Of a stretch of DNA of 64,000 nt, positions 2,110 through 63,204 are shown piece after piece. The notes beneath the pieces were generated by a model, which made no database searches, was not told where the DNA came from, and worked only from the letters and a program-made list of their open reading frames with translations. The stretch's first letter is position 1; the number at the start of each line of letters is the position of its first letter. The stretch comes from Naegleria gruberi. Its lineage: Eukaryota. The DNA lies in assembly GCA_000004985.1 (NCBI GenBank), contig GG738867.1. One strand, written 5' to 3'. A program made the position numbers and the translations under genes.

Positions 2110-5100
2110 ATGGCATCAAGTGATGTTCCAATTGAAAACAACCATATATCAACAACAACAACATGGGGAAGTGCTGCTACTAATACAATAACATCAACTC
2201 CAAGACTATTGCCGAAACCTCCAGTAACACCAAGAGGAAGTACAAAGGGAAGTTTGACACCATTAACAACGACAACAACAACCACCACTACTCCAAATAG
2301 TACTATTGCTAATGTTGTTAATGTAGGGAAACAACCTCCTCCAATTACAAATATTATTAGAAATCGAATAGAATTGGAGGAAAGAGAAAAGGAAAATCAA
2401 CAAAATATTCATTTATCATCACCGTTAACATCACCATCATCAATGCATAATAGTAATACTAATAGCTATTCGAATGAATATGAAAATTCCTCATACCTTT
2501 TCCAAGATGAAGTTGAAGAATATAAAACACCACCCAAACAATCGAGCACATCAACTCCCACAACAGAATCTTCATCTGCACTTCCTCCTCCTCCACCTTC
2601 TCTTCCATCATCAATGTCTAAATTGGCTTTAAAGAATGGAAAGATCAATAATAATTATCAGAAAGTAGTGACGACCACCATGATGAGTCCTCCACCTCCT
2701 CCACCAATAACAGTGGTGAGGAATGCACCTATTGCTACAATAGCTAGTACTGCATCACCAACAGTTTCGAATAGTAGTAATACTACACAACCAGAATCAC
2801 CTCGATTGGAAAGATACAAACCACTTCCTTCTGTTGCTAAATATAAGAGAGATTCAGTGGTAATTGCTAATTTGGCCAGTTTACCACCTCCTCAAATAAG
2901 TGATATGAAAGCATTCCTTGATATTTATGACAATAAGATACTAATTGTTGATTCGAGAGCATTTAGTGGCAGTAAAACTGTTAGTGAGCAATTAATATCA
3001 AGATTCACATTACGTACATTGACCATTGACAGCATTTTAGGAAGGGGCTGTTCGGGATGTGTCTATTTATGTAGTGAGAATGGAGAAAAGTTGGCTGTAA
3101 AGATTGTCACTCCAACTGCTACTTTTGCACCTAATGTAAAAGCAGAGTATGAACTAATGAGGTCATTGAATCATGATAGTATCATGAAAGTCCATGATTA
3201 TTTTGAAATGTTAACCTCACTTCAACCTGGATCTTTATTTACAATGAAATATTATGAAAATGGAGATTTGAGAAGATTAATTGAGGATTTTGAAAAGAAG
3301 GAAAAGAAAATCTCTATTCATGTATGTATTTTTTATAATTTTTAATGTAATGTGGATTTACCTTTGAATGAAAATTGAAACAAACAGTTGATTTATGATT
3401 TCATTTATCAAATGGCTAGCTCTTTAAATTTTATTCACACTCAAAAAATAATTCACCGAGATTTGGTATGTTTTAAAATTAATCAATTTCATAACCATTT
3501 CATCAATAGAAAGTAAGTTTCCTCTTTTGTTCCTCTTACTAAATTTGATTAATAGCCTGAAAATATTTTTATGGAAAAACAAACAGATCACACTTGTAAA
3601 ATAGTATTGGGAGATTTTGGATTGGCTAAAACTATACAACAATCACATGGACTCTATTCGATTGTTGGAACAATGAATTACCTTTCTCCTGAAATTGTAA
3701 ATAATTCTGAATACGGAGCAGAAACTGATATATGGAGTTTTGGTGTTGTCTGTTACGAGTTAATGACCTTAAAGAGTAAGCAAGTTGAAAGAGTGGTTAC
3801 ACTCCGCCAACAAGGAGCTCTCGTCAATGACATGCTCAACAGATATCCTCAAGAGGTTACCATGATCGAGTTGATTGTTCAAATGTTGAACAAGAATCCC
3901 TCTGATAGACCATCAGCGGATGAAATTCTCAAACAACCATGCATGAAACACTTTATTGAAATGAAGAAAGTGTGTGAACATATTGTACAGAAGCTTACTG
4001 AAAGTTTGGCTTATTTCCAGAAAAATTACGAGTTTGAAAAATGTGTACAGATCAAAGATCTTCTACAGAGTATTAGTCAACTGAGAGCAGAGTCCTGTGA
4101 TTCGAGTAGACTCAGGATATCACTCTTCAATGCATATACATTCTTGGAAGAAAAATTACCTGAAAATATTGACCTAAAACCAACTAAACCAAAGGTCAAT
4201 TTGGCTTCCTCTCCAGAAAAGCAAATAACTACCAAGAGAAGATCTAATACCAAAGCTGGTGTAACAAGTCCATCTAATCAAAATCCTCCATCATCCAATA
4301 CAACAATAACTACCACCACCAATAATCAACCTAACTTTAGAGTAACCATCTCAGGAGATGAGGAATTTTCACATCATTCTGAGGAATCTGAAAATTCCTC
4401 TGGTTCCACCGATAGTTCAACTGCTGTCAAGAAAAACTCCAATGCAAATAGTTTAGAGCTCGAAGATCCAAATATTATTAGAAAGAGGTCATCCTCTCGT
4501 AATACTATTATAAATCAAATCAAGGGATGGGTTGGTTATGGAACAGAAAAGGAGAAAAGCTTTAGACAAACTGTGGTAATTAAGCCACCAGATCCAAACA
4601 AGTTCCAACACAGCCATCACATTGGAGTGGACGATAGAAATAGAGTGAGTGGAAATTATCCAAAAGATTTTGATTCAGTCTTACAAGACATGCATATGGA
4701 ACCAGTAGAAAGCCCAATTGTTGAAACTCCCACTCCTGTCATTAAAGAAGGAGAAGAGGAAGAAGAAATTAAACCAAGACTACACAGAAGATCAACAAGT
4801 CTATTCGAAAAGCCATCCCTCAATCAATCTCTAGATGAGATTACAACAGTCGCGAGTCCAACCAAACAACGTAGCTCGACTGTGAAAAGTAGTAATAGCC
4901 CTGTACCACCAGTGGAGATTTTAAAAGATCCTCCAAACTCACCACCAAGTACAACAACTCCTTCGACACCCTCTAACTCTGAAATACTCAAAATTTCTCC
5001 ACGATTTGGAAAGGCTGGAAAGTTAGAAGTCAGTCCAACTCCATTCGAAATTACTGGTACTCCTGTAAAATCTCCAAACACACAAAATGGTGTGGAAATT

Positions 5101-5214
5101 CCAAGTATTGGAGGTGCATTCAAACTCATCTCTGACCGAAGACAACAAGATATCATTGAAAAGAATATTGAAGAAGCTTGTAGCTCACCAACAGTTTCAA
5201 GAAGACGAAGGTAA
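2110..5214 (+). CDS. Ser/Thr protein kinase, NEK-like catalytic domain, with long low-complexity N- and C-terminal extensions. Multi-exon model: 2110..3321, 3388..3465, candidate micro-exon 3510..3512, 3556..5214.
   Basis: Kinase motifs are present: GRGCSGCVY...LAVKIV (Gly-loop and VAIK), IIHRDL | K | PENIF, DFGLAK, GTMNYLSPE and DIWSFGVVCYEL. The catalytic domain is split across ORF-track pieces 1963..3345 and 3571..5214. Intron boundaries are GTATGT...CAG (3322..3387), GTATGT...ATAG (3466..3509) and GTAAGT...AATAG (3513..3555). Confidence 0.7.
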
Positions 5215-26553: not shown

Positions 26554-29088
26554 TTATTTTAATAAAGCACTCAACATTGCTTCTTGAGATCCTTTGAGGA
26601 AAAGTAATGAATTACCAATTTTGTAATCAGACTTTTCTTGCAATTTGTGTTCTTCTAAAATGGTAAGGGTATTTTGTTTGGCATCCTTTCCAAGTTTTGA
26701 TGAAGAAACAAGTGATGAAAATCTCTCCACAAATTTTTCAAATGTAAACTTTGATGAATAGCCCTTTCTAGCCAATTTAATCATTTCCAAAATTCCATAA
26801 TTTCTAACTTGTTTTTGGACAAGTTTGTCATTGAAAGCAAGAGAGCTACCAGCACTGCTGTTACGAATGCAAATGACTGGATAGGTATACTTGGTGGAGG
26901 AAATGTGTTTCAATAGGAGTTCAACATTTTTCACATAGATGTCGGAGGCAAACTCTACAGAATTGGAACCTTGCAATAATTCAGAGTAAACTGTTTGAAC
27001 AATGGTATTCTTTGAGTTTTTGGCTAAGAATTCTTTGGATTGTTGAGGAATGGAGCTGATTGGATACACTGCCTGTTGGAACCAATCAATAACCTTATAA
27101 GTGACCTTGCCATTGAAATGTCCTAAAGAGAATTCCATATCAACAAGATTTGGTTTGAAGAGTTTGCTAACTTGTTCAGATTTTCCAGAGAACATTTTTG
27201 TGAGCTCTTGAATTATTGCTCCTTCATCGGATCCCTTGTACATGCTGTTAGTTTCCTTCTTGATAATAGTGAAAACTCCATCATTGGTATCCTCAATGGT
27301 GCTCAACAGAATTGATTTGGAGTTGAATGGAGAGAAATCAATTGGTTTCCAATCAATATTCTCTGATTTGTAAATTTCTTGTTCTTGATTGAATAACTTG
27401 TCGTGAATCAATTCTTTGAATCTTTCATTTGCATAATTGACCAATAATTGTTCCAAACCATTGTATTTTACACCTCTTTGAGCATCTACACCTGTTGCAA
27501 TGCTTTCAAATCCTGTACCAATATCGATGAGTGAAATTTCTCTATTGCACTCTGGATTCTTCAACATGTCATTAATGTTCTTTACAATCCATTCGAATAA
27601 TCCATTATAAAGAGTCATGACCATCAAATCTCTATAGTGAGAAGCTTGCTTGGCATTGACAAAGGTATCAACAAAGCTGTCACCAACAGCAACCGTTGGT
27701 TTTATCATTGTGAATAATAATTCCTTATCATCAACACCCAACAATCTTGTAGCTCTATAGAATGAAGCAAAACTATTTTCACTCAACTTGGTCATTGCAC
27801 TGGTATTTGATTCATTTTCAACAAAGTCACAATTATTTAAATGTAAAAGAGCGCACAAAATCTTGGTAACATCTCCAATATTAGTTTCAGTAAAACCAAC
27901 ATTGAGGAAGAGCTTTTCTACAGCAGATGAAAAACTTGTCTTTTGTTCGAGTTCCTTATTCAACAATTGAGTGAGTTTGAATTTGGTTTTCAATTTTTCA
28001 TCGGCCAACATTTGGTAAAACACTTGGAAATTATTAATAAATCCAGATTTGTAGTCAGTCTCTTCGACTGGAATACCTTCCTTCTCAGAAATCTTTTCCA
28101 TCACCCTCACCACTGCACGACTCATTTCCAAATTGAAACATTCGAAATGAGCACCAGTGAGTGAAGAATTGGTAAATTGCAAACCAATTTTTTTAGAAAC
28201 TCTGCTACTATACTTGGATTGCTCAGTTGATGAACTTGAAAAGAGTTCAATAATTTTCAAAGCATCACTTGCCTTTGAGACAATCTTGCTATTGGTCAAT
28301 TCTCCAAAAGAATCTAATAATAATTTTACAGTAGTTGATTTTCCAGAATTACTATCACCAAGTAGAATAATTGATTGATTTTCACCTGTTGAATTCAATT
28401 TGCTAAAAACTTGATTGGGTAATTTTTGTGAAATTTTTCCATCTCGTAAATTATTAACAGAATTTGAAATGATTGATGCAAATCCACCACAATCAGTAAA
28501 CACCAAAGGATTCCTATTATCTTCTAATCTAGATTTTAAATGATGTAAAATACAAGGTTCATTAACATGAGTCAATTGTGTCAAATCTTCCAACTTGGAC
28601 ATTCCAGGAGGATTCATAAACATGACACCCATCACAGGTACCTGAGCAATTTTCTTTTTAGGATCAGAAATATTCAACAATTCAACATTGACAACATTTC
28701 CATTTCTTTCCATCAACTTTCCCATTTGAAATAATTGATTTTGAACTTGTTGTTGTGGTTTTAAATCAGAACTCAATACCCAAACATGATTATCTCCAAA
28801 TTCTTGATCACTCAAAAGTTGTGAAAATAATTTTGTACTTTTCAATGGTGAAGATGAAGAAGATGAAGCATTGGAACTTGTTTTAAAAATTGGATGAGCT
28901 TTGGAACGTGAACGGAGGTTATTTTCTGAAGAATCCGAGAGTGAATTCTTATCATTGTCGAGACCTTGTGTTTTTTGGAGCAGTTGCTTACGACGAGCTG
29001 ATGAAGAAACTGGAGAGGAATCGTTTGCTGATGACATTTTTTTTGATTGTTGATTGATGAAGGTTTTTAGTCCAATTTTGTAAGACAT
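26554..29088 (-). CDS. Myosin motor (head) domain protein with no neck or tail encoded and with degenerate ATPase motifs.
   Basis: Myosin head signatures: NPPGMSKLEDLTQLTHVNEPCILHHLKSRL, EQLLVNYANERFKELIHDKLFNQEQEIYKSENIDWKPIDF and LIDIGTGFESI (switch II-like). P-loop is GDSNSGKS (consensus GESGAGKT). Switch I is KYSSRVSKK (consensus NSSRFGK). The ORF stops right after the converter-like end, GNSLLFLKGSQEAMLSALLK. Likely start Met at 29037. Confidence 0.7.
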   Translation of the reverse strand: MSYKIGLKTFINQQSKKMSSANDSSPVSSSARRKQLLQKTQGLDNDKNSLSDSSENNLRSRSKAHPIFKTSSNASSSSSSPLKSTKLFSQLLSDQEFGDNHVWVLSSDLKPQQQVQNQLFQMGKLMERNGNVVNVELLNISDPKKKIAQVPVMGVMFMNPPGMSKLEDLTQLTHVNEPCILHHLKSRLEDNRNPLVFTDCGGFASIISNSVNNLRDGKISQKLPNQVFSKLNSTGENQSIILLGDSNSGKSTTVKLLLDSFGELTNSKIVSKASDALKIIELFSSSSTEQSKYSSRVSKKIGLQFTNSSLTGAHFECFNLEMSRAVVRVMEKISEKEGIPVEETDYKSGFINNFQVFYQMLADEKLKTKFKLTQLLNKELEQKTSFSSAVEKLFLNVGFTETNIGDVTKILCALLHLNNCDFVENESNTSAMTKLSENSFASFYRATRLLGVDDKELLFTMIKPTVAVGDSFVDTFVNAKQASHYRDLMVMTLYNGLFEWIVKNINDMLKNPECNREISLIDIGTGFESIATGVDAQRGVKYNGLEQLLVNYANERFKELIHDKLFNQEQEIYKSENIDWKPIDFSPFNSKSILLSTIEDTNDGVFTIIKKETNSMYKGSDEGAIIQELTKMFSGKSEQVSKLFKPNLVDMEFSLGHFNGKVTYKVIDWFQQAVYPISSIPQQSKEFLAKNSKNTIVQTVYSELLQGSNSVEFASDIYVKNVELLLKHISSTKYTYPVICIRNSSAGSSLAFNDKLVQKQVRNYGILEMIKLARKGYSSKFTFEKFVERFSSLVSSSKLGKDAKQNTLTILEEHKLQEKSDYKIGNSLLFLKGSQEAMLSALLK

Positions 29089-33906: not shown

Positions 33907-36620
33907 TTATTTTAACATGTTTTCAGATTCCTCAGTAAGATACTTGCCAATAATGGATTGAACAATAGTATTCTCGAGTGGGGTTGCTGAAAAACATCTC
34001 TCTGCACAACTGGCCATCACTTCTTGAACCAATGATGGAAGATAGGTCTTATCTTCAATCAGAGTGGCAAGTTTTTGTTGCATAAAAGCAATTTCAACTT
34101 GCAATTGTTGGAAACCATTCTTACCAAAAGTGAGACCTCTAACACATTCTTCCATGGTCTTTAAAACAATCTTGAGAACTTCAGTAACAATTTCATTACC
34201 ACTGAAACTGGAATCACCTGCTCGTTGGAAATATCTTGGTGTCTTGATGGAGAAACTTGAAAGTTTCTTGTTGAAAATTCTCATTACATCCTTCACAGCA
34301 TCAGAATTTTGACTATATTTGAGTGAAGAAGATGAATCCAAACCACCATATGAAAGACTTGACTCACCACCACTTCTTCCACTTCTGCCACTTCTACCAG
34401 AGTCACTCTTTTCTGTTTCAGTGTCATGAATTTGACTAGGTGGGAATAATTCAATCAAGTGAGACCTTATATTGAAAAGATCTGTAACTGTAACTCTGAT
34501 AAAGCTTCTCACGTCACGAGGAACATCGGTATCGAGCCAATTATGTGATTCCATGCTAGTTCTGATTAATTTGGAAACCGATCTGGCTTGAATTTCAATA
34601 TAATATACAATTAAGTGGGAAGTACATTCCTTGATACGAATTTCCATATTTTCAATATTGAAGAAGGTATCTTCATCTTCAAGTTCTGTCATACGACTTC
34701 TTGAGGATGTCTTTCTCACTGATTCGGATGATGAAAACTTTTCACGAAGCATGTGCTTGAAATCTCTCAATGGAAGTTTTGTACAAAGTTTGGTCAATAA
34801 GAGAGCTCCGACACATGTCACCTTACGGAATTTGTATTCTTCTGGTGTTAAAATAGAAACCTTGCTATGAGGAGTACCATAATCCTTACAGAATAACAAG
34901 AGAGAATCAATAAACTCGACACACATGGATCTAATCCAATTCTTGTAAAAGCTTTCTCTTGATGCCATAATGGATCCTAGTGGAGTTTGAGTATCCTCTT
35001 CATTGATAAAAACTCTATAATTATCCAATCCTGATTCCAAATCATTTTTCAAATTTTGAATAGCTCCATCAACTATGGAATATAATTGATTAGCTTTGGT
35101 ATTATCAGGTGTTTCGGCTAGCTTTTGAATATTGGTCTCAGTGTTAATCTTGACCAATTCCATTTGATTCATTAAGAATGTTCTCACAGTGTCACCAACT
35201 AAATTGTAAACCTTTTCTTGAAGCTTGTTGTTTGGAATTTCTACAATATGTGAAACGGATTCATTACAGAATAATCTGAGAGCTAACTTCAAGTCCTCGT
35301 TGGAACTCTTTGAATTGTGAAGTAAACTTCTAATGTGTTCAAAATATCCAATGAATAATTGTTTGGTCCATTCACTGAAATCTTTGGTAAGTTGTTCGTT
35401 GGTGATTTGTTTTCTAATTTTTGGATCATTGGTAAGGAAGGTCATTTGGTAGGTATAATAACATGATTGTACTCTTTTCAAAAATGATGCATTCAGTGAT
35501 TTCACTCTTTCACTGGTGTTTGCTGATTCTGTTTGTTTAATTACCCTTTCCATATCTGCCTTTAAAAATTCTGATCTGACCTTCAGATAGGAATCTCTCA
35601 CTTGTTCAACTGGAACCTCCAAATCTATCAAAATGCCGACATAATCTTGAACCTTTGGATCATCATCATCGGCAATATTTAACAAATCCTTTTCAATATT
35701 GGTCTTCATCTTGTTGATAACATCAGTAGATTCCTTTTCAATGTTTTTAAATCCAGATAAATTAGCATTCTTTTTAAATATTCTACTAGCAATATTGTAA
35801 TACTTGACAGCAATATTATACTTTTTCATTTCTATACAGTCATTCAATCTTGTTGGTAATTCCAACAAGAATTGCATTTTCTTTAAAGTTCTGTTGACAC
35901 TGGAAAGTCTCTCAATCTTGTCTCTCTTGTTTTGAAGATTGGAGTTAATAGTTTCCGAACAAGTAGTAATTTTATCCATATTTTGTAAAAGTGATTTCAT
36001 TTCATCTTCCATTCCTTCCACGTGATGTTTCATCTTCTTGATAGTATCTGTTGCTGTGATAAACTTGTTGTAATTTTGATAGACAAGCATTTGAAGTGAT
36101 GTATCCAAATTCTTAGTTTCTTTTCTCAGTGCCGATTCTTGTTGCAATAAATCCTCCACTGATTTGTTCATCAGAGTCTTTTTTAAAAAGTCATCTGCAT
36201 TAAAGTGACTTCCATCTATTATTAATTTCATGATGATAATGATGATGATGAAGTATTGTTATTATAATAATATATTATAATTCATATTATTGTTGTGAAA
36301 AAGTACATTATATAAATTTCATATTAATCCAAATCAACAATAAAATTATAATTTAACACGAATTCACAAAATCAAAACCTACCAATATCTGTCGTATCAA
36401 AAACTTGACTATTATTTACAACAGGTCTTGAAGGTGTTCCTTCATCTCCTTGGTCTTCCTCATCAGCCATGGCACCATAAAATTGTGCCAACAACAATCG
36501 TGATCTCTCTCTTTCCTTGTCCTCGGTCAAGTCAGCCAATGGAGTAGAGGTAACAACCTCCTCCTCATTATTGTTGTTTTTCATCACAGATCGGGAGGGT
36601 GTTCTTGTTGGTGTACTCAT
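33907..36620 (-). CDS. VPS51: Vps51 (GARP/EARP complex subunit, Vps51/Vps67/Ang2 family). Two exons: 36384..36620 and 33907..36216.
   Basis: Spliced junction gives ...LLLAQFYG...VFDTTDID-GSHFNADDFLKKTLMNKSVEDLLQQESALRKETKNLDTSLQMLVYQNYNKFITATDTIKKMK. This matches the Vps51 N-terminal domain, with LVYENYNKFISATDTIRKM as its hallmark. Intron GTAGGT...AATAG is 167 nt (36217..36383). Confidence 0.75.
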
Positions 36621-36904: not shown

Positions 36905-39900
36905 ATGAATGTCTTCAATGCCATGTTCCAGACGAGAAAGGCTCCATCGTCGGCCACTGGAACCACTCAAGCCATGCATGTATTTTACATGTTGTCAATG
37001 GAAAAGATTTTGAAGAATTTAGTGAAGAAACAAACCGATTTGAAGAATGCTTGCCAAGAAGTTATGGGTATGTTTTGTTAGGGAGACTTTTTAGTTAATC
37101 AATAATCATTATTGTCATTAATTAAATTAACCTTCATTCACAAATAACAATGGAATAATATATAGATGTTATTAAAAAGTTGGAAAAGAACGAAGCCGAC
37201 GTTCTTAGGGATATTTCTGAAAATCCAAATAGATACTTTAAACCTTTGGAATTAGCTTGTGCAACCAAAAAACCAACAATAGTAGAACCGGCATTGGATT
37301 GTCTTCATAAATTGATGGCTTATGGATATATTGATAGTAAAATACCATATGAAGGGAAAACTGATCTTTTAATTGATGTTGTTGTTGCTACAATTTCTAA
37401 TTGTTTTGATCCAACACAAGACGACAATGTTCAATTACAGATCATCAAGGCCCTTCTTACAGCAGTTACATCATGTGATATCCATGGAAGGAGCTTGAGA
37501 TTAACCGTAAAGACTTGTTTCAATATTCATCTAGTTTCAAAGAATGAAATTAATAGAAAGACAGCACAAGCAACTCTCAACCAAATGTTGAATATTATTT
37601 TCCAAAGAATGGAATCAAAACCACCAAAAGCTAAACAACAAGAAGCTAATCAAGAAAATGTTCAAGATGAGAGTGCTCTTGCACAACTTCAGGAGGAAAA
37701 ACCAACAGAGGATTATATTAATGAATTTGTTGATGGAATAATAGATGACGTTGCCCAACAAATTTTGGAACAACAACAATATGATCTTGAGAATGAGGAG
37801 GATGACGAACCTATGGATGTTATTGAAAGTGAAAATAATGGAGAGTCATCGGATAAAACAAATACACGTAAGAGATCGGTTTCAGATGCTGATCACGAAC
37901 CAAACGCTCCAATTTTTGACAACCAATACCAAAAAGATGCTTTCTTTATATTTAGAGCATTATGTAGATTAGCCATGAAGCAACTCCCTAAGAAGTATGT
38001 TTTTGTTATTACAATTTATTAATTTAAATTAACAATTTAAAAACCTAGTCCAACCCCAGACTCCTTGGAACTTAAAAGTCGTTTACTTTCTCTTGAATTA
38101 ATTCACAACGTTTTGGAAAACAGTGGACCAGTGTTTAGAACATCTGAGACTTTCATTTCGGATATCAAGCAATTTTTGTGTTTATCACTTTTGAGAAATT
38201 GTACAAGTCCAGTTCCACCAATCTTTTCTCTTTCATTGTCCATTTTTAAATCCCTTGTTAAATATTTCAAAGTTAATCTGAAAGGAGAAATTCGTTTGTT
38301 CCTGACAAACTTTTTGCGTATCTTACACAGTGAAAATAGTACATATCACCACAAGATGTTGGTAATTCAGGTTTTGAGTTTTATTGCTCAAGATTCACAA
38401 ACATTATTGGATATTTTCGTTAACTATGATTGTGCTTTGGACTCTTTGAATATTTACGAACAAATTGCTAGTGAATTGTCAAACGTTGTACAAAACTTAC
38501 AAGCTGAAGGAGAATGGATGACACCTACACAAGAACTTAAATTAAAGACAGCATCTTTGAATGCTTTGGTGTCTGTTTTGGAATCACTTGTAAAGTGGAT
38601 GAATGAAAAGCAAGGTGAATCATCAGAGGAACTTAATAATCAATCCGAAGAAATGACTGAAGGTGAATACTTTGAAAAGCAAAGAAACATGAAGATTGGT
38701 CTGAAAGAAGGTATCAAACTTTTCAATAGAAACCCAAAGAAAGGTATCAAGTACCTTGTTGAAATTGGAAAACTTCCAGATCCTGAAAAAGTCGACAAGA
38801 CTGAATATGCTACCTCTGTTGCTAAGCTTTTATATAATACTGAAGATTTTTCAAAGAAGTTGATGGGTGAATTTATGGGTGAACAAGTTAATAGTGATAT
38901 TCTCCATGCCTTTACTGAATTACAATCATTTGCTGGTCTTCCATTCGATAAGGCATTCAGAAATTATTTGAATACATTCAGACTTCCAGGTGAAGGCCAA
39001 CAAATTGACAGAGTTGTCCAAAAGTTTGCTGAAAAGTACTTTAAGGATAACGGAAAGTCACATGTTTTTGCCAATGCTGATGCTTGTTACGTTTTTGCTT
39101 ACTCTGTAATTATGTTGAATACCGAATTGCACAACCCTGCTTTCAACTTCCGTGAAAGAATGTCTCTTGAAGCTTTCATTGCTAACAATAAGGGTATCAA
39201 TGATGGTGGTGATATTGACCACAAGTACCAAGAGTCTATCTATGGAAGTATTAAGAATAATGAAATTAAATTGAAGGGAGATGAAATGGAACAAATTGTG
39301 CAACAATCCCAAGATAAAACTCAACTTACAGCTCAACAAAATCCAAGAAAGAAGCGTATGTTGTTCACTTTGGAAAGCGAAAAGCTCGAAAAGGAAACAA
39401 GAAACTTGTTGAAATCAAGTCAATCACAGAGTGATTCTGATGATCAATTCTTCAGTGCTAATCACATTACTCACGTAAGAAGTATGATGGAAACAACCTG
39501 GGAATTTTTCAAGGAAGGTCTCAAGGCTACTTTGGAAAAGGACAAGTTTGCTGATACTAAGGTCCATGACAATTGTCTCAGAGGTTTGGAATATGCTATT
39601 CACATTACTAGCCGTTTTGATATGCCAACTGAAAGATTGGCTTTTGTTCAAACATTGTGTCACTTTACCAAATTGACCATTTCTGAAAAGGAATATGAAG
39701 CTCAAAATGATCCAAATCATATCCACCAAAATCCAGATACTCTCAAGAACAGATATATTATGCAAGATAGACACATCAAGGCTATCAAGATACTTCTCAA
39801 GATTGCCGAATTAGAAGGTAATTATCTTAAGGACAGTTGGGCCAATATTTTGGAATGTCTTTCTCAATTAGAAAGATTGCAATCTGATGTCCCACAAAAT

Positions 39901-41955
39901 CGTAACAAATCCAAGAGTGCTGCTAGATTAACTATTGAATTGACCCCAGAACAAATCAATTCTAATACCATCTTGAATAATAATATTGACCATCTTGTTA
40001 TTGATAAGATCTTTGTCAAGTCTGGTGAATTGAGTGATGATGCTATTGAAAGCTTTGTTAAGGGCTTGTGTGGCGTTTCTAATGATGAAATTAATCCAAA
40101 AGCTAATAGAATGACATGTACTGGTAACATTAATATTAATCCAGTACCAAGAACTTTCAGTTTGCAAAAGCTTATTGAAGTTGCTCACTATAATATTAAC
40201 AGAATCAAAATTGTTTGGTCCAAGTTGTGGGTTCACATGGGTAAACATTTCATCACTGTTGGTACACATGATGATTTGACTATTGCAATGAATGCTATTG
40301 ACTCTTTGAGACAACTTTCAATGAAATTCTTGGAACAAGACGAATTGGCTAACTATCACTTCCAACGTGACTTCCTCAAGCCATTCTTCCAAATTATTCA
40401 ACAAAGCAACAAGACTGAAATTAGATTACTCACTGTTGAATGTGTTGGTCAAATGATTTTGGGTAGATATAACAATATCAAGTCTGGTTGGAAGACAATT
40501 CTCCAAATCTTTGCTCAAGCAGCTTTGTGTGGATCACCAGTCACTGACGAGGGTTTTAGATATGTCACTGCAATGATGAAGGATGGTGGTGATGTTGATT
40601 ATTTCCATCAAATTCAACAAAACGAATCCTTTGTTGATTGTATCTTGTGTTTGACTGCTTTTGCTCGTAACTTGGCTAATACCAATATTTCCAAAAGTTC
40701 TATTGCACTTTTAAAGCTCTGTGCTCTTCATATTGTTAATAATAGAGTTGATGCTATCAAGAATGTTGACATTTACACTGATGAAGAAGTTCACTTCAAG
40801 TTGTGGTTCCCTATCTTGACTGGTCTCTCGCGATTGGTTAGTGACGATAGAAGAGAAGAAGTTAGAGCTAATGCTTTGAAGACTCTCTTTGAAGAAGTTC
40901 TCATTAACAGAAAGATTGGTGACAGATTCTCTCCAAAGCTTTGGAATTTCGTTTTCACTGGAGTTCTTTTCCCAATATTTGACGAAATCAAGCAAGCCAA
41001 TATCACTGATGAAAGCTGGATCAATACTACTTGTAGAAAATCCTTGAGCTTGATGGTCACATTATTTGCTCAATACTTTACATCCATTCCACAATTATTC
41101 GACAATATTCTCACCTTGATTAGTTCTCATTGTTTCTTTAGAGTTGAAGAGGATCAAGTCAATCAAAATACTGACTCTCCTTTGGTTGTTGAAAAGAAGA
41201 TTAAGAATGAAAAGCTTGCTGAAATTGGTAACGAGTCATTCAAGATTTTTGTTCAATTATGTGGTAAATTATTCAATGACCAACAATGGGATGCTGTTTG
41301 CAGAAGTTTGGAAAGTATTCTCACCATCAACCTTAAACTTAAGTCACCAATCGATAGCAGAATCCGTTTGAAGATTATTGAAACAACTAACGATATTCTC
41401 ACTACTCAATTCGATAACATGAAACTTGTTCACATTGAAAGTATGCTTGATTCATTGTTGAATTGTCATAACACCTCATTGGAATTCAACTCCAAGCAAA
41501 AGGGTAATGCTGAAAATGATTACGAGATTGAAATTGAAATGTTCTCCTGTACTGTTTATGTTAATATCTGTTCCAAGTTGTGCTCATCACCAAAAACAAC
41601 CGAAGAACTCTCTAAACGTCAAGAAGTTGGAGAAAATAGAATTATTGAGATTACCGAAAGAACTTTCATCAGATATTTACAACATATTGGTATTTTACAA
41701 TATTCTGGTAGTAATGCTGATTTAGATATTCAACAAGATACTGTCTTGTGTGGTAATAGATTAATGTCATCATTGGTTCCAACAGTTGTTTCTCTCCTCG
41801 AAGTTTACCTTTCATTCCCTGAAGAACAATTCCTCAAATACTTACCTAAATTCTACCCTCTTTTCACTAAATTATTGCTGACGCAACACAGAGAAATCAG
41901 ATTAGTTCTCCTTGACTTGTTCACTAGATTTGGTAAACAAGTTCTTTTGAAATAA
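36905..41955 (+). CDS. SEC7: Sec7-domain Arf guanine-nucleotide exchange factor, BIG/Sec7p class. Three exons: 36905..37067, 37166..37994, 38049..41955.
   Basis: Sec7 catalytic domain ...FRLPGEGQQIDRVVQKFAEKYFKDN...ADACYVFAYSVIMLNTELHNPAF has the catalytic Glu in the PGE motif. DCB/HUS-like N-terminal helical regions and long HDS-like C-terminal regions are present. Introns are GTATGT..ATAG (98 nt) and GTATGT..CTAG (54 nt). Confidence 0.8.
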
Positions 41956-47881: not shown

Positions 47882-49501
47882 ATGGATGGAGGTAACCATT
47901 CTCGTAACAATAATGAGAGTATTATTCGAAACTCTCATTCGAATAACATGCTTGATGTTCAGTCCTCTTTACAAGATTCAAAAACAATACATGAATTATC
48001 ATCAGCAACAACACCACAACAACAATTATTTGGAAAAGGTTCCTCTTCTTCTACCAGTTTAGTCTTACCATTGACTGGACTAAACCTTTCCAATAACAAT
48101 ACTACTAGTAATTCTATTAATATTAATAATAATAATACCAATGGTCTGTCTTCTAATAGTAGCAGACAATATGTATCAGATACAACAAGTGTACAAACTA
48201 ATAATCGATCAGATTCGTCCAATAGGAATCGAATAGGATTAGTGGATTACACAATGTCAGATTCTAAAGATGACGATACTCATCTATTGATGCTACAACA
48301 TTCCACTAATAATAATACTAATCCTCAACAAGTTTCGTCTATCCTTTCGAATACAACATCAACAGCTTATCAGCAACAAGTCTTTCACTCTACTGCACCA
48401 ACACAACTGCATGGCAACAACACAGGACACAACAAGATTTTATCATCGAATAACGATTCTTCCATAATATTACCCAACGTTTCGTCCCAACTTTCGAATA
48501 GCAACATGTTTGTTTCTTGCATAAACAAATCAGCAAATTCTGTCCATTTTAATAACAACCAGTCAATGTCTAACATGCAATCTGATACAATGGAGGCATC
48601 AGAAGGAATTTTCATGCCAAACTCGCAAAACTCTAGGAATAGTACAACAACAGGATTGGTTTCGAATAACTCCACGATGATGCATGTAGCATTCTCAACT
48701 CAAAAAAACATGCAAAATGGTCAACCAACATGCTCCTCATCATCGTCATTGGAAAATCAACATCAACCACAACATGCATTACAACAAACGAATGTTGGTA
48801 TAAACTCGACTAATCCAAACTATCAATTCCTAATTAATCAAATGCAACAAACACCATCATCATCATCATCATCCATGAGAATGCTTCCAAATGCAACATT
48901 GAACATGCAATTGAATGCGAACATTTCATCATCTCTACAAATGGTAAACAATCAGACGACGACGACAACAAACTTTTCAAATTCTTCTTCCAACATTCAA
49001 AACATTCCAACGACATTTAATTCAATGATTGTGGAATATCAGACAATGCCACTTTCTGTCAGTAATCAAACAAATCAATTGACATCCATTGGAATGCATG
49101 ATGAAACCATGTTGAAATTGGATTTGGAAGATTTTGTGAATACGTTACATAGTGAGGAATATAGAGTCTATATGGATATGAATAATCTCGTTTCGAATAG
49201 TTACCATTCGAATAGTATTGTAGTGAATCATCCTTCACAACAACATCCTTTAACGTCATCTTCTAATTTACCTCAACAACAAATATCATCACTACATGTA
49301 AATCCACCTCCTAATTTTGTCCCTTCTTCCAATTTATTGAATAATCCCAACCTTTCGAATATTGCAAACAACAATTTGCATATTATCTCTTCTCAACAAC
49401 AGCAATTGCAACCAATCAACATTAACAACATGCAAAGAGTTGTTTCTCTAAATCTAGGTTCCTCCTCTTTAAATCCTACTTCCCATTTCCCATTCGAATA
49501 A
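47882..49501 (+). CDS. Low-complexity Asn/Ser/Thr/Gln-rich nuclear-type protein.
   Basis: 539-aa ORF dominated by N/S/T/Q tracts. One short, more complex patch: ETMLKLDLEDFVNTLHSEEYRVYMDMNN. Confidence 0.4.
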   Translation: MDGGNHSRNNNESIIRNSHSNNMLDVQSSLQDSKTIHELSSATTPQQQLFGKGSSSSTSLVLPLTGLNLSNNNTTSNSININNNNTNGLSSNSSRQYVSDTTSVQTNNRSDSSNRNRIGLVDYTMSDSKDDDTHLLMLQHSTNNNTNPQQVSSILSNTTSTAYQQQVFHSTAPTQLHGNNTGHNKILSSNNDSSIILPNVSSQLSNSNMFVSCINKSANSVHFNNNQSMSNMQSDTMEASEGIFMPNSQNSRNSTTTGLVSNNSTMMHVAFSTQKNMQNGQPTCSSSSSLENQHQPQHALQQTNVGINSTNPNYQFLINQMQQTPSSSSSSMRMLPNATLNMQLNANISSSLQMVNNQTTTTTNFSNSSSNIQNIPTTFNSMIVEYQTMPLSVSNQTNQLTSIGMHDETMLKLDLEDFVNTLHSEEYRVYMDMNNLVSNSYHSNSIVVNHPSQQHPLTSSSNLPQQQISSLHVNPPPNFVPSSNLLNNPNLSNIANNNLHIISSQQQQLQPININNMQRVVSLNLGSSSLNPTSHFPFE

Positions 49502-49574: not shown

Positions 49575-50012
49575 ATGAGTAGTAGTAATCAACCAACTCT
49601 CACACCACAACTTGTTTCCAATATTTCCACCACAACTCAAAAGATTATTCCACCACCACCACCAACAAGTGTAAATATTGGAAACAATGCAAATGTTGAT
49701 ACACCCAGAGAATATGTCATTCACGAAAATGAATATGACAGAAAAAAGACTCCAAAATCCAAAAAGAGGCAATCAATTGACTATTGCAATCAAAAGAAGA
49801 TGGAATTTAAGATGGAAATTTCAACAAAGCATCCTCAACCGAATCCTGTGCAAGTAGTTGTTACCTCGTCATCTTCAGTAAGCACACCACAAAGTAATAC
49901 AACACCAACAACAAATTCTTCAAGTATAATGATGGGTCAATATGTCAACAACAACAATAATTCATTTTACAATGAACCACAAATGGATGAGAATCCTGAA
50001 GAAAATAAATGA
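49575..50012 (+). CDS. Low-complexity protein. It may be a downstream exon of, or a frameshifted continuation of, 47882..49501.
   Basis: Same strand and same composition, 73 nt downstream in a different frame. Contains basic KKTPKSKKRQSIDY. Confidence 0.3.
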   Translation: MSSSNQPTLTPQLVSNISTTTQKIIPPPPPTSVNIGNNANVDTPREYVIHENEYDRKKTPKSKKRQSIDYCNQKKMEFKMEISTKHPQPNPVQVVVTSSSSVSTPQSNTTPTTNSSSIMMGQYVNNNNNSFYNEPQMDENPEENK

Positions 50013-50269
50013 TTTTAAAAGGTGGTGTGTGAAATTCATTATTTGGACCATTGAATTATTGAACCAATTTGTAAAGTGGAGAAATAATGGAAAGTCAATT
50101 GCATTTATGTCAGTAAATAGAGGCAATGGTGCAACATTGCAAATCTGACTAATGATCCTTCCGGATGAAAATTTAAAGTATCTTCCAAATAATAATTCAA
50201 CAATTGTAATCAAGTAAAAAACACTGGACGAATTTGTGAATTTATATTAAGCCAATAGATAAAATGAAG

Positions 50270-50340
50270 TGCATTAGCCGGGAGTCGAACCCGGGTCACC
50301 AGCTTGGAAGGCTGGTATGATACCGTTACACTACTAATGC
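50270..50340 (-). tRNA. tRNA-Gly: tRNA-Gly (anticodon UCC).
   Basis: Reverse complement is GCATTAGTAGTGTAACGGTATCATACCAGCCTTCCAAGCTGGTGACCCGGGTTCGACTCCCGGCTAATGCA. The acceptor stem is perfectly paired and the anticodon loop is CTTCCAA. Confidence 0.9.
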
Positions 50341-50581
50341 TTCTTGCTAACAATTTTCAAAATATGGATTTTAAAAACTGCACTTCTTACGAATTTGGAA
50401 TGTTTGTTGAGCATTCTAATTTCTGTCAAAAGTTCGGTTGTAGGCTTACTCTTTGTGATTATGTTTGTTTCATTGTATACGAAATAACTTGGATACTACA
50501 AATAGGCTAAATATGACACAACCTTATCCTACCATTTGTGGAACAGAAATCATCGATTTAACGAACAGATTGGCCTAGCAA

Positions 50582-51568
50582 ATGTCATCTCCATTCAAAA
50601 AAATGAAACAATTAACATTTAAACTATTGATCTGTGCACTCTTTATTCTCTATTGTAGTTGCTCCATGGCTATGGCTGGTCGTGGTAGTGGAGGAAGCTC
50701 AGGTAGAAGTTCTGGAAGTAGTGGTGGTTCTAGAAGTGCTGCCTCAAGAACTACCAGATCAGCTAGTTCTGCTCCAGGGAGAAAGTCAACTACCAAGTCA
50801 AGATCTGGAACTGCAGCTAAAAAGTCCACCAAGCCATCTAAAAAAACAAGAACAACAAAACTGGTCAAAGGAGATGCACTCACTACAGGAAAATCAACAG
50901 TGGTTGTGAAGAAGGGTGACACTGTGAGTGAAATTGCATATAAACTTGCCAAGGAGCGTAATATTCCTTTCAAGGAAATGTATAAGGCAGTATATGAAGC
51001 CAACAGTAAATTACTTGGAGATAGAACTCAATTGTTTAACAAGTATGGTGCCAAGATGAGATTGCATGGTAAATTGGGTGATTTCAAGTTTAGAGATGCT
51101 ATCAAACCAGGTGATGTTTTGAATTTACCAACTTTGGGATTGAAACCAGAAAATCCAAATGGTGACAAACCTGGCAAGGGAGATCAACCAAATAATGGTG
51201 ATAAGCCTAGCAATGATAAGCCAAGCAACAACGTTGATCAGCCAAGTAATGCTGATAAACCAGACAATGGAAACAAACCAGATATTGCTCAGCCTGACAA
51301 TGGCAAGCCAGAAATCATTCCTGAAAAACCAAACAATGGTAACACTCCAGATAGTGGAAATATTCCACCTCACAGAGGTATTCCACCAATCATTGATGTT
51401 ACTCCAAAGATACCAATCTCATATCCAAAGAATCCAACTCCAATCAAACCACTTCCTATCAATAACAATGGTAAGAAACTGGTTCTCAGACATGCTAGAC
51501 TCAGAGGAAGAGGGGTTTTCATTAAGGTCAATGTTAACATTAATGGTCAACCAAATAAACTAGATTAG
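50582..51568 (+). CDS. Secreted LysM-domain protein with a Gly/Ser-rich linker and Pro/Asn/Asp-rich repeats.
   Basis: Signal peptide MKQLTFKLLICALFILYCSCSMA. LysM-like block VVKKGDTVSEIAYKLAKERNIPFKEMYKAVYEAN...IKPGDVLNLP. C-terminal reiterated NGDKP / SNDKP / DNGKP repeats. Confidence 0.6.
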   Translation: MSSPFKKMKQLTFKLLICALFILYCSCSMAMAGRGSGGSSGRSSGSSGGSRSAASRTTRSASSAPGRKSTTKSRSGTAAKKSTKPSKKTRTTKLVKGDALTTGKSTVVVKKGDTVSEIAYKLAKERNIPFKEMYKAVYEANSKLLGDRTQLFNKYGAKMRLHGKLGDFKFRDAIKPGDVLNLPTLGLKPENPNGDKPGKGDQPNNGDKPSNDKPSNNVDQPSNADKPDNGNKPDIAQPDNGKPEIIPEKPNNGNTPDSGNIPPHRGIPPIIDVTPKIPISYPKNPTPIKPLPINNNGKKLVLRHARLRGRGVFIKVNVNINGQPNKLD

Positions 51569-51752
51569 TTTTATTGAAATCTAACACTTATATGTCGTAT
51601 TGTAAATATTTTGAAGTAGGAGCAGAGTTGAAAACATAATATTGTTCCTGCTGCCATACTTGAGCTGAAATTCAATAGAGTTAGATGTTGTTGACTAAGC
51701 ACCGATTCTAGGAAGAATATCAGCATTACTGTATCTGTGACAATTTGAAAGG

Positions 51753-53330
51753 TCAATAAAATCTTCTGAACTTGGAAGGAGGAGCAATCATCCCTCCTCC
51801 ACCGAAGAAATGTGAATGTTGGAGGAATGTGACAGGAATATTCCCATCTTCTCTAATTCTTTTGAATTGTATCGTTTGTTCAGTGTTATGTAGCCCTCTA
51901 ACAGAAACGGTTTGATTTGTAACACTTTGAATATATTGAGCTTTCTTTTCTTCCAATTTTTTCTTATATGCATCCTTTTCATTTGTTGGCAGCTCTTTCC
52001 ACATTTTGCTAACCATTGACACAATCTCTTTTCTGGATTTATCTGGATTTTCTATAAGCATTTTTGGCTTGACAATATTGGTATAATAACTGTAAGCTGT
52101 TTTTTCTGGTTGCTCTATATTTCTGATTTTCTGCCCTTGACTAATTTCGAACATTCGATTCATTATTATGAACATGTCTTCTAGCATTAATGAAATGTCT
52201 TGAGTAATTTCTTTTTCATTGAAACAAGTATTAATATAATGAGTTGTTGAGTCAGTACTGACTGTGGCAGTTGTCAAACCATTTAACAGAGTTTCATTAG
52301 GAGTGGCATTATTATAAAATAATACATTTCCATCATCTTTGAAAATGATGACATTTTCGTAGATTTCTCCAAATATATAATTCTGTGAATCTCTAAACAT
52401 GTTGTATAATTTTGCCTTTCTCAAATTACAACTAACTTCATTATGTTGATAATAGGGAATATAATTTAAACATCTATGAATATTTGAAATAAGTGTTTCC
52501 TTACAACCACTGGTTTGAATTGCCCTTAAACCTGATTCACATAATTCTGATTCCAATTGTTGTAAATCACCTCCAGGGAAGTATTCCTTGTAAGAATTCA
52601 TTAAATCTTCCATTTTAGTCTTGACTTTAAAATTATATCCTTCATAGACAACTAATGCACCACGTAAAATACTCAATAATTGGAAAAAGTTATCAGTAAA
52701 GTTTAGATTAGGATATATCGACAAGTAAGCTCTCCTAATGGCTCTCATGGCAATTTGATTCAAAGTTGCTTGATCCTTAGCATTACTTTTCAAATGCTTC
52801 ATGAAACTTGTACAAGGACTGTCCTCTCCCGTCATTATATAATATTCATCATCAGAAATATCATCATCATCATCTCGGATTCTAAATACAACATGGTTAT
52901 CAGAAAATGTCTTCAAATGAGCTTCTTCATCTTCTTCATCTGAATCGAAATCATCATAATCATTCGTGAATGTATTCAAGCCTTCATCCATAGCAAAATC
53001 CATGTATGGATTAAAGTTGTATCTATTCCTTTTCTTCCTCTTCTCGGGCCGAGTTACTGCAGCTACAATACCTGCATCAGGTGCAAAAGGTAATACAGTA
53101 TCACTACCACCACACAAACAATTTACATAATACAATTTACAAAAACGTTCGGAGAAGAGTAATTCCTTCCACAACTTGTTGACCATCCACAATGGAGCAA
53201 ATTTATAATTCTTTTTTTCTCCTTTACATTCTACAGTATTAAAAAAGACATATTTTGGATGTATAAAGGAAAGTACATTGAGTATGAGTGGTTCTTGTTC
53301 AAACCATTCATAGGAGAGTGAAGAAGACAT
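51753..53330 (-). CDS. HMG-box DNA-binding protein.
   Basis: C-terminal HMG box EKTAYSYYTNIVKPKMLIENPDKSRKEIVSMVSKMWKELPTNEKDAYKKKLEEKKAQY. Preceded by an acidic region (DFDSDEEDEEAH). Confidence 0.6.
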   Translation of the reverse strand: MSSSLSYEWFEQEPLILNVLSFIHPKYVFFNTVECKGEKKNYKFAPLWMVNKLWKELLFSERFCKLYYVNCLCGGSDTVLPFAPDAGIVAAVTRPEKRKKRNRYNFNPYMDFAMDEGLNTFTNDYDDFDSDEEDEEAHLKTFSDNHVVFRIRDDDDDISDDEYYIMTGEDSPCTSFMKHLKSNAKDQATLNQIAMRAIRRAYLSIYPNLNFTDNFFQLLSILRGALVVYEGYNFKVKTKMEDLMNSYKEYFPGGDLQQLESELCESGLRAIQTSGCKETLISNIHRCLNYIPYYQHNEVSCNLRKAKLYNMFRDSQNYIFGEIYENVIIFKDDGNVLFYNNATPNETLLNGLTTATVSTDSTTHYINTCFNEKEITQDISLMLEDMFIIMNRMFEISQGQKIRNIEQPEKTAYSYYTNIVKPKMLIENPDKSRKEIVSMVSKMWKELPTNEKDAYKKKLEEKKAQYIQSVTNQTVSVRGLHNTEQTIQFKRIREDGNIPVTFLQHSHFFGGGGMIAPPSKFRRFY

Positions 53331-61029: not shown

Positions 61030-63204
61030 TTATTTCTCTGATTCAAGGAAGGAATTGATGATATCAGTAAACTGAGAAGGAAATTCTCGTCTCTTTGCAA
61101 GTAATTCCAATGTTTCAGGTATTATTTTCTCATGCAATAAATCTAGACTTGGTCCATTAGAAGATTTCACTGTAAAGCACAATTTGGCATTGTATCCTTT
61201 TTCATTAATACATTGTCCAAACAATTGTCGTAATTGGTAGAAATACGTATAATCACAATCCATAAAAGTCATTGAAACTCTGTCAATAATAAATATGGTT
61301 TGCAATCTCTTTTCAGTTATTTCAATAATTTTGCTTTCTTTTCTAGTACCATCGATAGTGATTGAAACTTTGATTTTCTTTCCTGGTCTTTGTAACAATT
61401 CAATAAGTGACTTATTAGACATTTCTTCATAATCTTTGATAAATATTGAGCAAGCACCGAACCAATTCTTAATGGCCTCTTGTTGTATTTCAGGATGTGA
61501 TGTAAGGATATCCATATTAATCCATCTTATAGCCTTTGGTGCATATTTTACAATCTCTAAAGCATAATCCTTATTGCTAGATATAAACTTTGACACTTTT
61601 TGGAGACTTGTAAAAGGATCTTTTTTAAGAATTGCGATAATAATGTCCATTGAGTGTATGTACTCTTTAGGAATTGTGCTAATATTGTCTCCTCCTTTGA
61701 TGGAAGCAAGAACCATTTCTTTATCAATCTCAATACTACTATCAATTTCTGAAATGCTGAAACCTCTCCTCAAACAGTCTAAAATCAGCTCTCTATCGAT
61801 TCCAATGATATCCTTATATTCCTTTTTAAAAAGATACTTGAGAATGGATGGATTGACTCTTAGAGCCTCTTTAAGGAATTCCTTATCATGTCTCAATGAC
61901 TCATCCAATATCTTGAATAATTTTCTTTCCTGACGGCAATATTTCAACAGCCCTCTATTCTTCAAGAATTCACTGTCAACTTTGAGAGAAATATTCTTGG
62001 ATATGAATTCAGTGTCTATGGTAGTACTAACTTCTATTAACTTGCAGAATAAGTCGAAACTATTGAAAAAGCGATCATCCAAACATGCACAAATATCATC
62101 ACTTTCTACATCATGGCACAGGTACGATATGTCATAATCACGGGTTGTGCACGCCTTTACAATTTCCCAAGGCACAAATCCTATTTTTCCCTCAGCTTCT
62201 CCTTGATCCCAAGGGTAATCTGTATACTTTGAATTGGAAACCTTCGCTTTTTTTAATCCAATAATGTCAATGAGATTGCATGCTACTAAATATTCATCAT
62301 CAAATCCCAAATATCCCACCATTTGTTGTAATTGCAACACTAAAATTCCCTTATCACCTGGAACAAGGGAAACCCAATAATCACTTCTATAATTACAATT
62401 TTCAAAACTTGGATATGATAAACCTCCATAAAAAGAGCATAACAATTCCTTCTCCTTCCTTTGGAAACGGATAATATTTCCATTATTAGAAACTAGGAGA
62501 AATCTATTTGAGGATGTTGTGATTTTACACAGCTTCATATTGTCCATCTCAATAAACTCTACACAATTTGATATCTTTTCTCTGGTAATTTGAATTTCCT
62601 TTACCTCCTCATCTTGTTCATCTTTATCATCTTGGTCATTTTCTTCATCCTCTCCTTCATCTTCTTGATCATCTTCTTCATCTTCCTCTTCCTCTTCATC
62701 TTCTTCTTCTTCATCGTCATGTTCCTCTTCGTTTTGCTCTGTTTCATCATCTCCATCATTTTCATCTTTCCCTTGCTCATCTGTGACCATCATTGCATTC
62801 ACTTCCTCATCCATTTTCAATACCTTCAACAATCTTAACCAATATGCCAATGAATGATATTCATTCTCTGGATTACACTCTACAGACCAAGTCCATGTCA
62901 ATTTTCCTGAACAAATCTTGTTATTCCATAGAGTATCAACCCACTCCTTCAGCAAAAGTATGATCTTCTCACGGGAAAAGTACAAATCGTGCCAATCTTT
63001 ACACACCACAGCAAGTGATGGCAAATCCTTTGGTGAACAAAACTTGAATATATGACCCAATACAAATGGATCATATCGACAAACGAGAATATTTAGAGGT
63101 TTCTCCAATAATTGATTGGATTTTTGCTTTTTTGATGATGACAACGAGAGAGAGTTATCTTCCGAAGAGGTTCGCTTCATTTGGTGTTGGGAATTAGTAG
63201 ACAA
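61030..63204 (-). CDS. F-box-like protein with a long poly-acidic (D/E) tract.
   Basis: N-terminal F-box-like FVLGHIFKFCSPKDLPSLAVVCKDWHDL. About 60 aa run of D/E (DDETEQNEEEHDDEEEEDEEEEEDEEDD...). 724-aa uninterrupted ORF. Confidence 0.5.
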   Translation of the reverse strand: MSTNSQHQMKRTSSEDNSLSLSSSKKQKSNQLLEKPLNILVCRYDPFVLGHIFKFCSPKDLPSLAVVCKDWHDLYFSREKIILLLKEWVDTLWNNKICSGKLTWTWSVECNPENEYHSLAYWLRLLKVLKMDEEVNAMMVTDEQGKDENDGDDETEQNEEEHDDEEEEDEEEEEDEEDDQEDEGEDEENDQDDKDEQDEEVKEIQITREKISNCVEFIEMDNMKLCKITTSSNRFLLVSNNGNIIRFQRKEKELLCSFYGGLSYPSFENCNYRSDYWVSLVPGDKGILVLQLQQMVGYLGFDDEYLVACNLIDIIGLKKAKVSNSKYTDYPWDQGEAEGKIGFVPWEIVKACTTRDYDISYLCHDVESDDICACLDDRFFNSFDLFCKLIEVSTTIDTEFISKNISLKVDSEFLKNRGLLKYCRQERKLFKILDESLRHDKEFLKEALRVNPSILKYLFKKEYKDIIGIDRELILDCLRRGFSISEIDSSIEIDKEMVLASIKGGDNISTIPKEYIHSMDIIIAILKKDPFTSLQKVSKFISSNKDYALEIVKYAPKAIRWINMDILTSHPEIQQEAIKNWFGACSIFIKDYEEMSNKSLIELLQRPGKKIKVSITIDGTRKESKIIEITEKRLQTIFIIDRVSMTFMDCDYTYFYQLRQLFGQCINEKGYNAKLCFTVKSSNGPSLDLLHEKIIPETLELLAKRREFPSQFTDIINSFLESEK

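Follow-up and report, generated by a model that had tools for sequence, protein, structure and literature searches.

A Divergent LysM-Like Module in a Largely Disordered, Probably Secreted Protein of Naegleria gruberi

Introduction

What does a free-living amoeba do with a protein made of one small folded block between long low-complexity arms, and what might that block bind? The question is raised by a gene at positions 50582-51568 of a 64,000-nucleotide stretch of Naegleria gruberi DNA (NCBI GenBank assembly GCA_000004985.1, contig GG738867.1), referred to here as the window. N. gruberi is a heterolobosean amoeboflagellate, free-living and bacterivorous. An initial annotation, made from the letters alone, had described the gene product as a secreted protein with one LysM domain and Pro-rich repeats, possibly a chitin-binding effector of the fungal kind or a cell-wall protein. 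The best overall explanation, in our judgement, is a secreted N. gruberi protein with one divergent LysM-type glycan-binding module, and we would give this explanation a somewhat better than even chance of being right. In terms of architecture, the protein is probably an insertion-bearing LysM-like module within a lineage-specific, disordered and probably secreted heterolobosean protein.

Sequence Evidence for a LysM-Like Module

The signature G112-D113-T114-V115-S-E-I118-A119 is present in the block, together with N141 in the second helix, and the Gly and the Asn are invariant in an alignment with 24 bacterial LysM-like units. An exhaustive HMMER scan, in which residues 91-188 were searched against 1.84 billion representative proteins, returned a strain variant (P0001, described below) and 13 weak matches with E-values from 2e-6 to 4e-4. 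Pfam scans of ten of the 13 identified eight as LysM proteins (six with FimV_N plus LysM, one triple-LysM protein with the source name YgaU and one five-LysM protein); the remaining two, a polyubiquitin and an RTX protein, are evident chance matches. Among the three unscanned matches, P0016 and P0018 carry FimV-type units, so that at least 10 of the 13 are LysM proteins. In NCBIfam, the best matches, all of them sub-threshold, are to the LysM portions of YneA, PRK11198 (LysM/YgaU) and Rpf, and the SAG1386/EF1546 family also matches weakly.

Aligned by hhalign to a profile of 24 FimV-type units, residues 106-145 scored a 98% probability (E 1e-13), an optimistic value, because the units were picked by their similarity to the query and the score is inflated. 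The FimV-type profile in turn detects LysM domains of solved structure, namely those of LytE, Ecp6, Kbp, phage phiCD508 LysM, SafA, Volvox chitinase, Mg1LysM, AtlA and MltD (E 2e-11 to 1e-3).

Predicted Structure and a Putative Insertion

Two AlphaFold2 (AF2) models were compared. The domain, run with an alignment of LysM sequences, is predicted to have a strand at 106-108, helices at 115-126 and 130-145 and a strand at 179-181; its core has a predicted local distance difference test (pLDDT) value of 70-90, with a low-confidence stretch at 150-171. The full-length protein served as a control, with an alignment that held the 97% identical strain variant only, and here the prediction is a strand at 105-108, helices at 115-126 and 130-160 and a strand at 179-182. 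In this model, residues 101-188 are the only region with a pLDDT above 70. The same topology appears without the LysM alignment and is therefore independent of a LysM-biased alignment. The predicted fold is beta-alpha-alpha-beta with the two strands paired antiparallel, the arrangement that would be expected of a LysM fold. When the structure was compared with viral models in BFVD by Foldseek, the top five matches were all phage LysM proteins (probability 0.57-0.98, E 0.03-0.5). Because sequence, profile and fold methods converge on one fold, we consider it likely, and with good confidence, that the folded block is a true LysM-fold module.

The module departs from its relatives between the second helix and the last strand. 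N141 and Pro183 are 42 residues apart; the corresponding spacing is about 21 in units of the FimV type and about 16 in the Pfam profile. Therefore, about 25 extra residues (roughly 146-176) would lie in the alpha2-beta2 loop, a region that is of low confidence in both models (domain residues 60-81; protein residues 161-172). The insertion would be lineage-specific. A different register is given by MAFFT, which places the last FimV strand on residues 151-163 (LFNKYGAKMRLHG) and leaves 164-183 as an appendix. This register suggests a LysM without an insertion, with strand 2 at 156-162 (YGAKMRL); both AF2 runs pair strand 1 with residues 179-182.

Several results weigh against a LysM-type glycan-binding module, and they should be kept in mind. 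The Pfam LysM family (PF01476/CBM50) matches with only 18.1 bits (E 0.0027), below its gathering cut-off of 20.9, and the match is confined to residues 108-133, which align with positions 2-23 of the 43 in the profile. The initial annotation had named a Pfam LysM search as its own check, and a sub-threshold score falls formally on the refuting side of that check; its single LysM domain stands on the remote-homology and fold evidence, but not as a Pfam assignment. Single-unit matches to bacterial LysM domains reach only 10-20 bits, the E-values of the HMMER scan come from summed repeats, and the unrelated polyubiquitin and RTX protein attain equal summed E-values. A phmmer search of the PDB with the domain alone found no LysM match (with the full protein, it found only low-complexity matches to the linkers of single-chain variable fragments). 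The mean pLDDT values of the domain and full-length models are low (63 and 50, respectively). Foldseek found nothing significant in the PDB (best match a LysM module, E 0.22), and the best E-value in BFVD, 0.034, is not significant either. In LysM-ligand complexes (Ecp6, CERK1 and AtlA), the binding groove is bounded on one side by the alpha2-beta2 loop and, by analogy, an insertion of about 25 residues in this ligand-contacting loop could abolish or change binding. Finally, the literature offered no usable source on a LysM ligand or on chitin in Naegleria cyst walls.

The Gene and Its Counterpart in a Second Strain

The open reading frame (ORF) has exactly the coordinates that it was first assigned. 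It runs on the plus strand from an ATG at 50582 to a TAG at 51566-51568, with 328 codons and no interruption. With twelve long ORFs from the window as the reference for coding potential (0.20-0.47 bits per codon), frame 0 scores 0.41 bits per codon, each segment of the protein scores positive individually and the other five frames all score negative. At about 33% GC, the window is densely packed with genes, five of them for tRNAs; exons are long and some introns occur. A myosin-head ORF in it (26557-29088, minus strand) matches N. gruberi D2VF08 (NCBI/UniProt) at 100% identity, and the N. fowleri and N. lovaniensis proteins at only 44-47%; therefore, the DNA is from the N. gruberi nuclear genome and is not fungal. 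We conclude that 50582-51568 is a genuine N. gruberi gene and not a chance ORF.

Nevertheless, a look-up of the exact 328-residue sequence found no product on record, and the 97% cluster to which the protein belongs has metagenome sources only, with no NCBI or UniRef members. Judging from these outputs, the gene seems to be absent from the public N. gruberi protein sets. Two other products of the window, the HMG-box product (51753-53330) and a Vps51/Sec5-like product (33907-36231), are likewise not on record as exact gene products. For all three, either the public gene models differ, for example in introns or start sites, or the genes are unannotated. A tblastn search for paralogues within the window found none.

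The sole homologue of the full protein in a word-index search of a 5.8-billion-protein collection is P0001, at 97% identity. Its gene is on a metagenome contig of 2 kb (L001, run ERR1078381), where tRNA-Gly, ORF and HMG-box gene are arranged as they are here, and therefore L001 is from another N. gruberi-like strain. The entire frame of 327 codons is open there, including the signal-peptide part. The two coding sequences differ by 19 substitutions and one 3-bp indel, the latter an in-frame codon in the xNGDKP-type repeats (residues 189-262), whereas the 241-bp upstream spacer has 8 substitutions and 43 gap columns, with indels that are not multiples of three. At the codon level there are 7 synonymous and 11 non-synonymous differences, and the ratio of the non-synonymous to the synonymous rate (pN/pS) is about 0.45. 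None of the non-synonymous changes is in residues 101-188 (209 sites), where two synonymous changes occur; four of the 11 amino-acid differences are in residues 33-100. The pattern, in which the numbers are small, is that of an apparently constrained folded domain between drifting low-complexity arms.

Divergence between the strains is uneven over these 2 kb (window 50341-52200). Substitutions amount to 3.3% in the upstream spacer, which also has indels of 34 and 7 bp, and to 1.9% in the LysM-like coding sequence. By contrast, a single position differs among the 184 bp of the 3' spacer, and none among the 448 of the HMG-box gene part. This could reflect a haplotype boundary or a faster evolution of the LysM-like gene.

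Protein Layout Outside the Folded Block

The features of the locus are collected in Table 1.

Table 1. Features of the LysM-like gene, its product and its immediate neighbors
Feature	Residues	Coordinates	Strand	Basis and remarks
Coding sequence, single exon, complete, with TAG stop	1-328	50582..51568	+	ORF list, sequence, frame-0 codon usage, frame kept in strain contig L001
Signal-peptide-like N-terminus: MSSPFKKMKQ / LTFKLLICALFILYCSCS / MAMA, putative cleavage before G	1-32	50582..50677	+	Hydropathy, AF2 helix, strain comparison
Disordered basic spacer rich in Ser, Gly, Thr, Lys and Arg	33-100	50678..50881	+	Composition, pLDDT
Divergent LysM-type beta-alpha-alpha-beta module (predicted)	105-183	50894..51130	+	beta1 105-108, alpha1 115-126, alpha2 130-145 or longer, beta2 179-182
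Putative insertion between helix 2 and last strand	146-176	51017..51109	+	Low confidence in both models, Asn-Pro spacing
Acidic degenerate repeats rich in Asn, Pro, Asp and Lys (xNGDKP-type)	189-262	51146..51367	+	Repeat parse, composition
Basic Pro/Ile-rich tail ending in RHARLRGRGVFIKVNVNINGQPNKLD	263-328	51368..51565	+	Composition, hydropathy; pLDDT below 50
tRNA-Gly(TCC)		50269..50340	-	ARAGORN; identical in second strain
HMG-box gene, convergent neighbor		51753..53330	-	Pfam HMG_box, 44 bits against a cut-off of 25.4, residues 410-469

The N-terminus looks like a signal peptide, and cleavage is presumed from the sequence. The protein's only hydrophobic segment, residues 11-27, follows a Lys-rich start and is followed by A-M-A|G. 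The full-length AF2 model has a helix at residues 4-29, and the small residues at -3 and -1 of the putative cleavage site are kept in the second strain (V-M-A, A30V). The signal peptide named at the outset is plausible in view of the hydrophobic segment and the AxA-like site, but an uncleaved signal anchor, that is, a type II membrane anchor, is an alternative. All three Cys residues of the protein are within residues 1-32, and the mature protein would have no Cys, no N-x-S/T sequons and an isoelectric point (pI) of 10.3. A glycosylphosphatidylinositol anchor was rejected because the C-terminus is not hydrophobic.

The spacer had been called Gly/Ser-rich. This is correct for its composition (S18, G11 and T9), but it is also strongly basic (K9 and R8, besides A7), with a pI of 12 and a pLDDT below 50. 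It has a weak, sub-threshold match to a mucin-like glycoprotein.

Beyond the module, residues 189-262 can be parsed into about 14 degenerate units that end in Pro (NGDKP, GKGDQP, NNGDKP, SNDKP, SNNVDQP, SNADKP, DNGNKP, DIAQP, DNGKP and others), with a pLDDT below 50 and a predicted disordered or extended conformation. With the additional Pro/Ile-rich stretch to about residue 293, they account for the roughly 100 Pro-rich residues of the initial annotation. At the DNA level, TRF found only two copies of a 15-bp unit (51199-51228); therefore, the protein repeats would be old or maintained for their composition, rather than recently expanded. The tail has no Pfam family match. When the C-terminal 70 residues were the query, the word-index search gave no candidate sharing three words and missed even P0001 with its near-identical stretch. 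This reflects a limitation of the index, and negative outcomes of short queries to it are no evidence that relatives are absent. About 70% of the chain is predicted to be disordered low-complexity sequence, and the mature protein is, according to these models, mostly disordered and very basic, with arms of opposite charge.

Relatives and Comparison with Known Systems

The nearest sequence relatives are the LysM units of bacterial FimV/HubP-like and YgaU/Kbp-type proteins, with 30-38% identity over beta1-alpha1-alpha2. The module has in common with the FimV units the pattern V-K-x-G-D-T-[LV]-S-x-I...[IV]-[PS]-F-x-x-M-x-K-A-[IV]-Y-x-x-N. In the FimV proteins, as here, only the first half of the Pfam LysM profile is matched, but they pass the threshold through summed repeats. 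The N. gruberi protein has one unit rather than three or four, about 25 extra residues before the last strand, and a eukaryotic host and codon usage. Judging by Pfam and hydropathy, it lacks FimV_N and BON, a transmembrane segment, an acidic cytoplasmic region and the FimV/TPR part at the C-terminus. An identity as a FimV/HubP-type polar organizer was ruled out, only the LysM-like unit being common to both. In similarity and presumed mode of action, the protein comes nearest to single LysM modules that bind walls.

Eight of the metagenome proteins (P0006, P0007, P0010, P0011 and P0015-P0018) are FimV-like with three or four tandem LysM-like units. These units follow a regular 57-residue pattern, Y-x-V-K-x-G-D-T-L-S-x-I...F-T-K-M-M-K-A-I-Y-x-x-N-P-x-A-F..., and Pfam LysM reaches only the first half of each.

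Apart from the strain variant, no eukaryotic homologue was found in the 5.8 and 1.84 billion-protein searches, and a DNA-pattern scan of metagenomes gave 184 stretches that matched the pattern, none of them a relative. Compared with canonical LysM/CBM50 domains (Volvox carteri chitinase, 5k2l; E. faecalis AtlA, 2mkx; E. coli MltD, 1e0g), the N. gruberi module has a Pfam score under the gathering cut-off and, on the predicted structure, a longer helix 2 and an insertion in the alpha2-beta2 loop. The fungal LysM effectors (Ecp6, 4b9h; Mg1LysM, 6q40) are compact LysM proteins, whereas this protein is not fungal and not compact, is free of Cys in its mature part and has long disordered low-complexity arms. 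In architecture, the protein resembles bacterial LysM surface and spore-coat proteins (B. subtilis SafA, 7r1l; the SAG1386/EF1546 family), which also combine one wall-binding LysM with long repetitive or Pro-rich segments. Outside the LysM module the likeness is one of analogy, and the organisms and their walls differ. The analogy suggests a wall-anchored spacer protein.

Proposed Function and Alternatives

We infer the ligand, the localization and the biological role, which would be as follows. The product would enter the secretory pathway by way of the putative N-terminal signal peptide, and would be released or exposed at the cell surface. The predicted module at residues 105-183, the sole folded element, would dock on a polymer containing N-acetylglucosamine, by analogy with every characterized LysM domain, in a groove made of the beta1-alpha1 loop (KKGDTVSEIA) and the alpha2-beta2 loop. 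The Ser/Gly-rich basic segment and the Pro-rich xNGDKP segment may act as extended flexible spacers and perhaps make electrostatic contacts, in the manner of the bacterial LysM surface and spore-coat proteins. The most plausible ligands would be bacterial peptidoglycan from prey, or components of the cyst wall or extracellular matrix that the amoeba itself makes. Prey peptidoglycan would be the most economical choice because N. gruberi is a bacterivore, with the cyst wall as the main alternative; of the suggested cell-wall role, only a possible cyst-wall protein survives. A peptidoglycan ligand would also fit the nearest relatives, the FimV/HubP and YgaU-type units, which are peptidoglycan-associated periplasmic domains; the LysM-like domains of FimV/HubP are described in this way in two papers (PMC12918733, PMC5285504). 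No described Naegleria LysM protein was found in the literature, nor any account of the origin of PRJEB11402.

The strongest rival, which we consider rather unlikely, is that the LysM-like fold has been co-opted and binds no glycan, and that the protein acts through its disordered charged segments, for example in a matrix, in adhesion or by binding polyanions, or that the module binds some other ligand. The position of the insertion in the binding loop would fit this rival, and there is a precedent in the E. coli Kbp/YgaU LysM, which takes part in potassium binding. However, the module keeps the GDT-x-x-x-IA motif of beta1-alpha1 and the invariant helix-2 Asn, and a domain that is unchanged between strains while the disordered parts have changed fits a constrained binding module.

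Less probable still is an orphan ORF of recent origin with little if any function, an unexpressed or fast-drifting secreted peptide whose likeness to LysM would be convergent or accidental. The single 97% identical homologue among 5.8 and 1.84 billion proteins, the lack of any protein from an annotated source (NCBI, UniRef), the pN/pS value, a strain divergence of the coding sequence that exceeds that of the adjacent HMG-box gene and the sub-threshold level of all family matches are what such an ORF would be expected to show. They have to be set against the native codon usage, a 328-codon frame that stays open at about 35% GC in both strains, its one indel being in frame, the 0 of 209 non-synonymous sites changed in the folded domain and the independent convergence of sequence, profile and fold methods.

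The fungal-type effector of the initial annotation, which would mask chitin or sequester chitin fragments during host interaction, can be given almost no weight: the organism is N. gruberi and not a fungus, fungal LysM effectors are usually disulfide-stabilized and this mature protein lacks Cys, its closest relatives are of the bacterial FimV/YgaU type, the exhaustive HMMER scan found no fungal homologue, and a fungal contamination of the contig is opposed by the 100% N. gruberi match of a neighboring gene and by the shared codon usage. To our knowledge, N. gruberi lives without a host and its trophozoites have no wall of chitin in need of protection, and we know of no host interaction for this species.

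A secreted, LysM-type glycan-binding protein thus remains the explanation that we prefer, and its origin invites a further thought, which we regard as speculative and improbable. N. gruberi might have captured a FimV/YgaU-type LysM from a bacterium, possibly an amoeba-associated one, and domesticated it into a species-specific secreted lectin for bacterial walls. Domestication, a doubtful step in the same way, would have brought native codon usage, a eukaryotic signal peptide, disordered arms and a new 25-residue loop, and the lectin would serve recognition during predation or defense. A recent horizontal transfer was rejected because the codon usage is native; an ancient one is conceivable. 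If the capture did occur, the protein would be a predator-side counterpart of the plant and animal LysM pattern-recognition proteins.

Should the module bind peptidoglycan, it would be a rare LysM-based protein for bacterial-wall recognition in a heterolobosean predator. The favored explanation, if true, would offer a way into the recognition or processing of prey by Naegleria, or into the building of its cyst wall. Current understanding is not overturned, because these domains are ubiquitous and already well understood in their general function. The locus also flags a gene that is apparently missing from the public N. gruberi protein sets, and it would be a test case in which fold prediction picks up a LysM variant with an insertion that the curated thresholds of hidden Markov models overlook.

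Neighbors and Other Genes of the Window

The two neighbors named in the initial annotation were both found. The tRNA-Gly(TCC) gene is separated from the ORF start by the 241-bp spacer and bounds the gene at its 5' end. On the other side, the end of the HMG-box gene is 184 bp 3' of the ORF.

Two adjacent ORFs on the plus strand (47882-49501 and 49575-50012) encode 539 and 145 residues of extreme low complexity, rich in Asn, Ser, Gln and Thr, with no Pfam family; they are 73 bp apart and may be exons of one gene. On the minus strand, a 724-residue ORF at 61030-63204 has DUF4116 repeats (58.9 bits), a family for which we know of no function. The ORFs for a kinase (3571-5214), the myosin head (26554-29088) and a Sec7/BIG protein (38065-41955) start in the middle of their Pfam profiles. 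Therefore, they would have 5' exons upstream across introns, and the mechanical ORF coordinates under-call several genes of the window.
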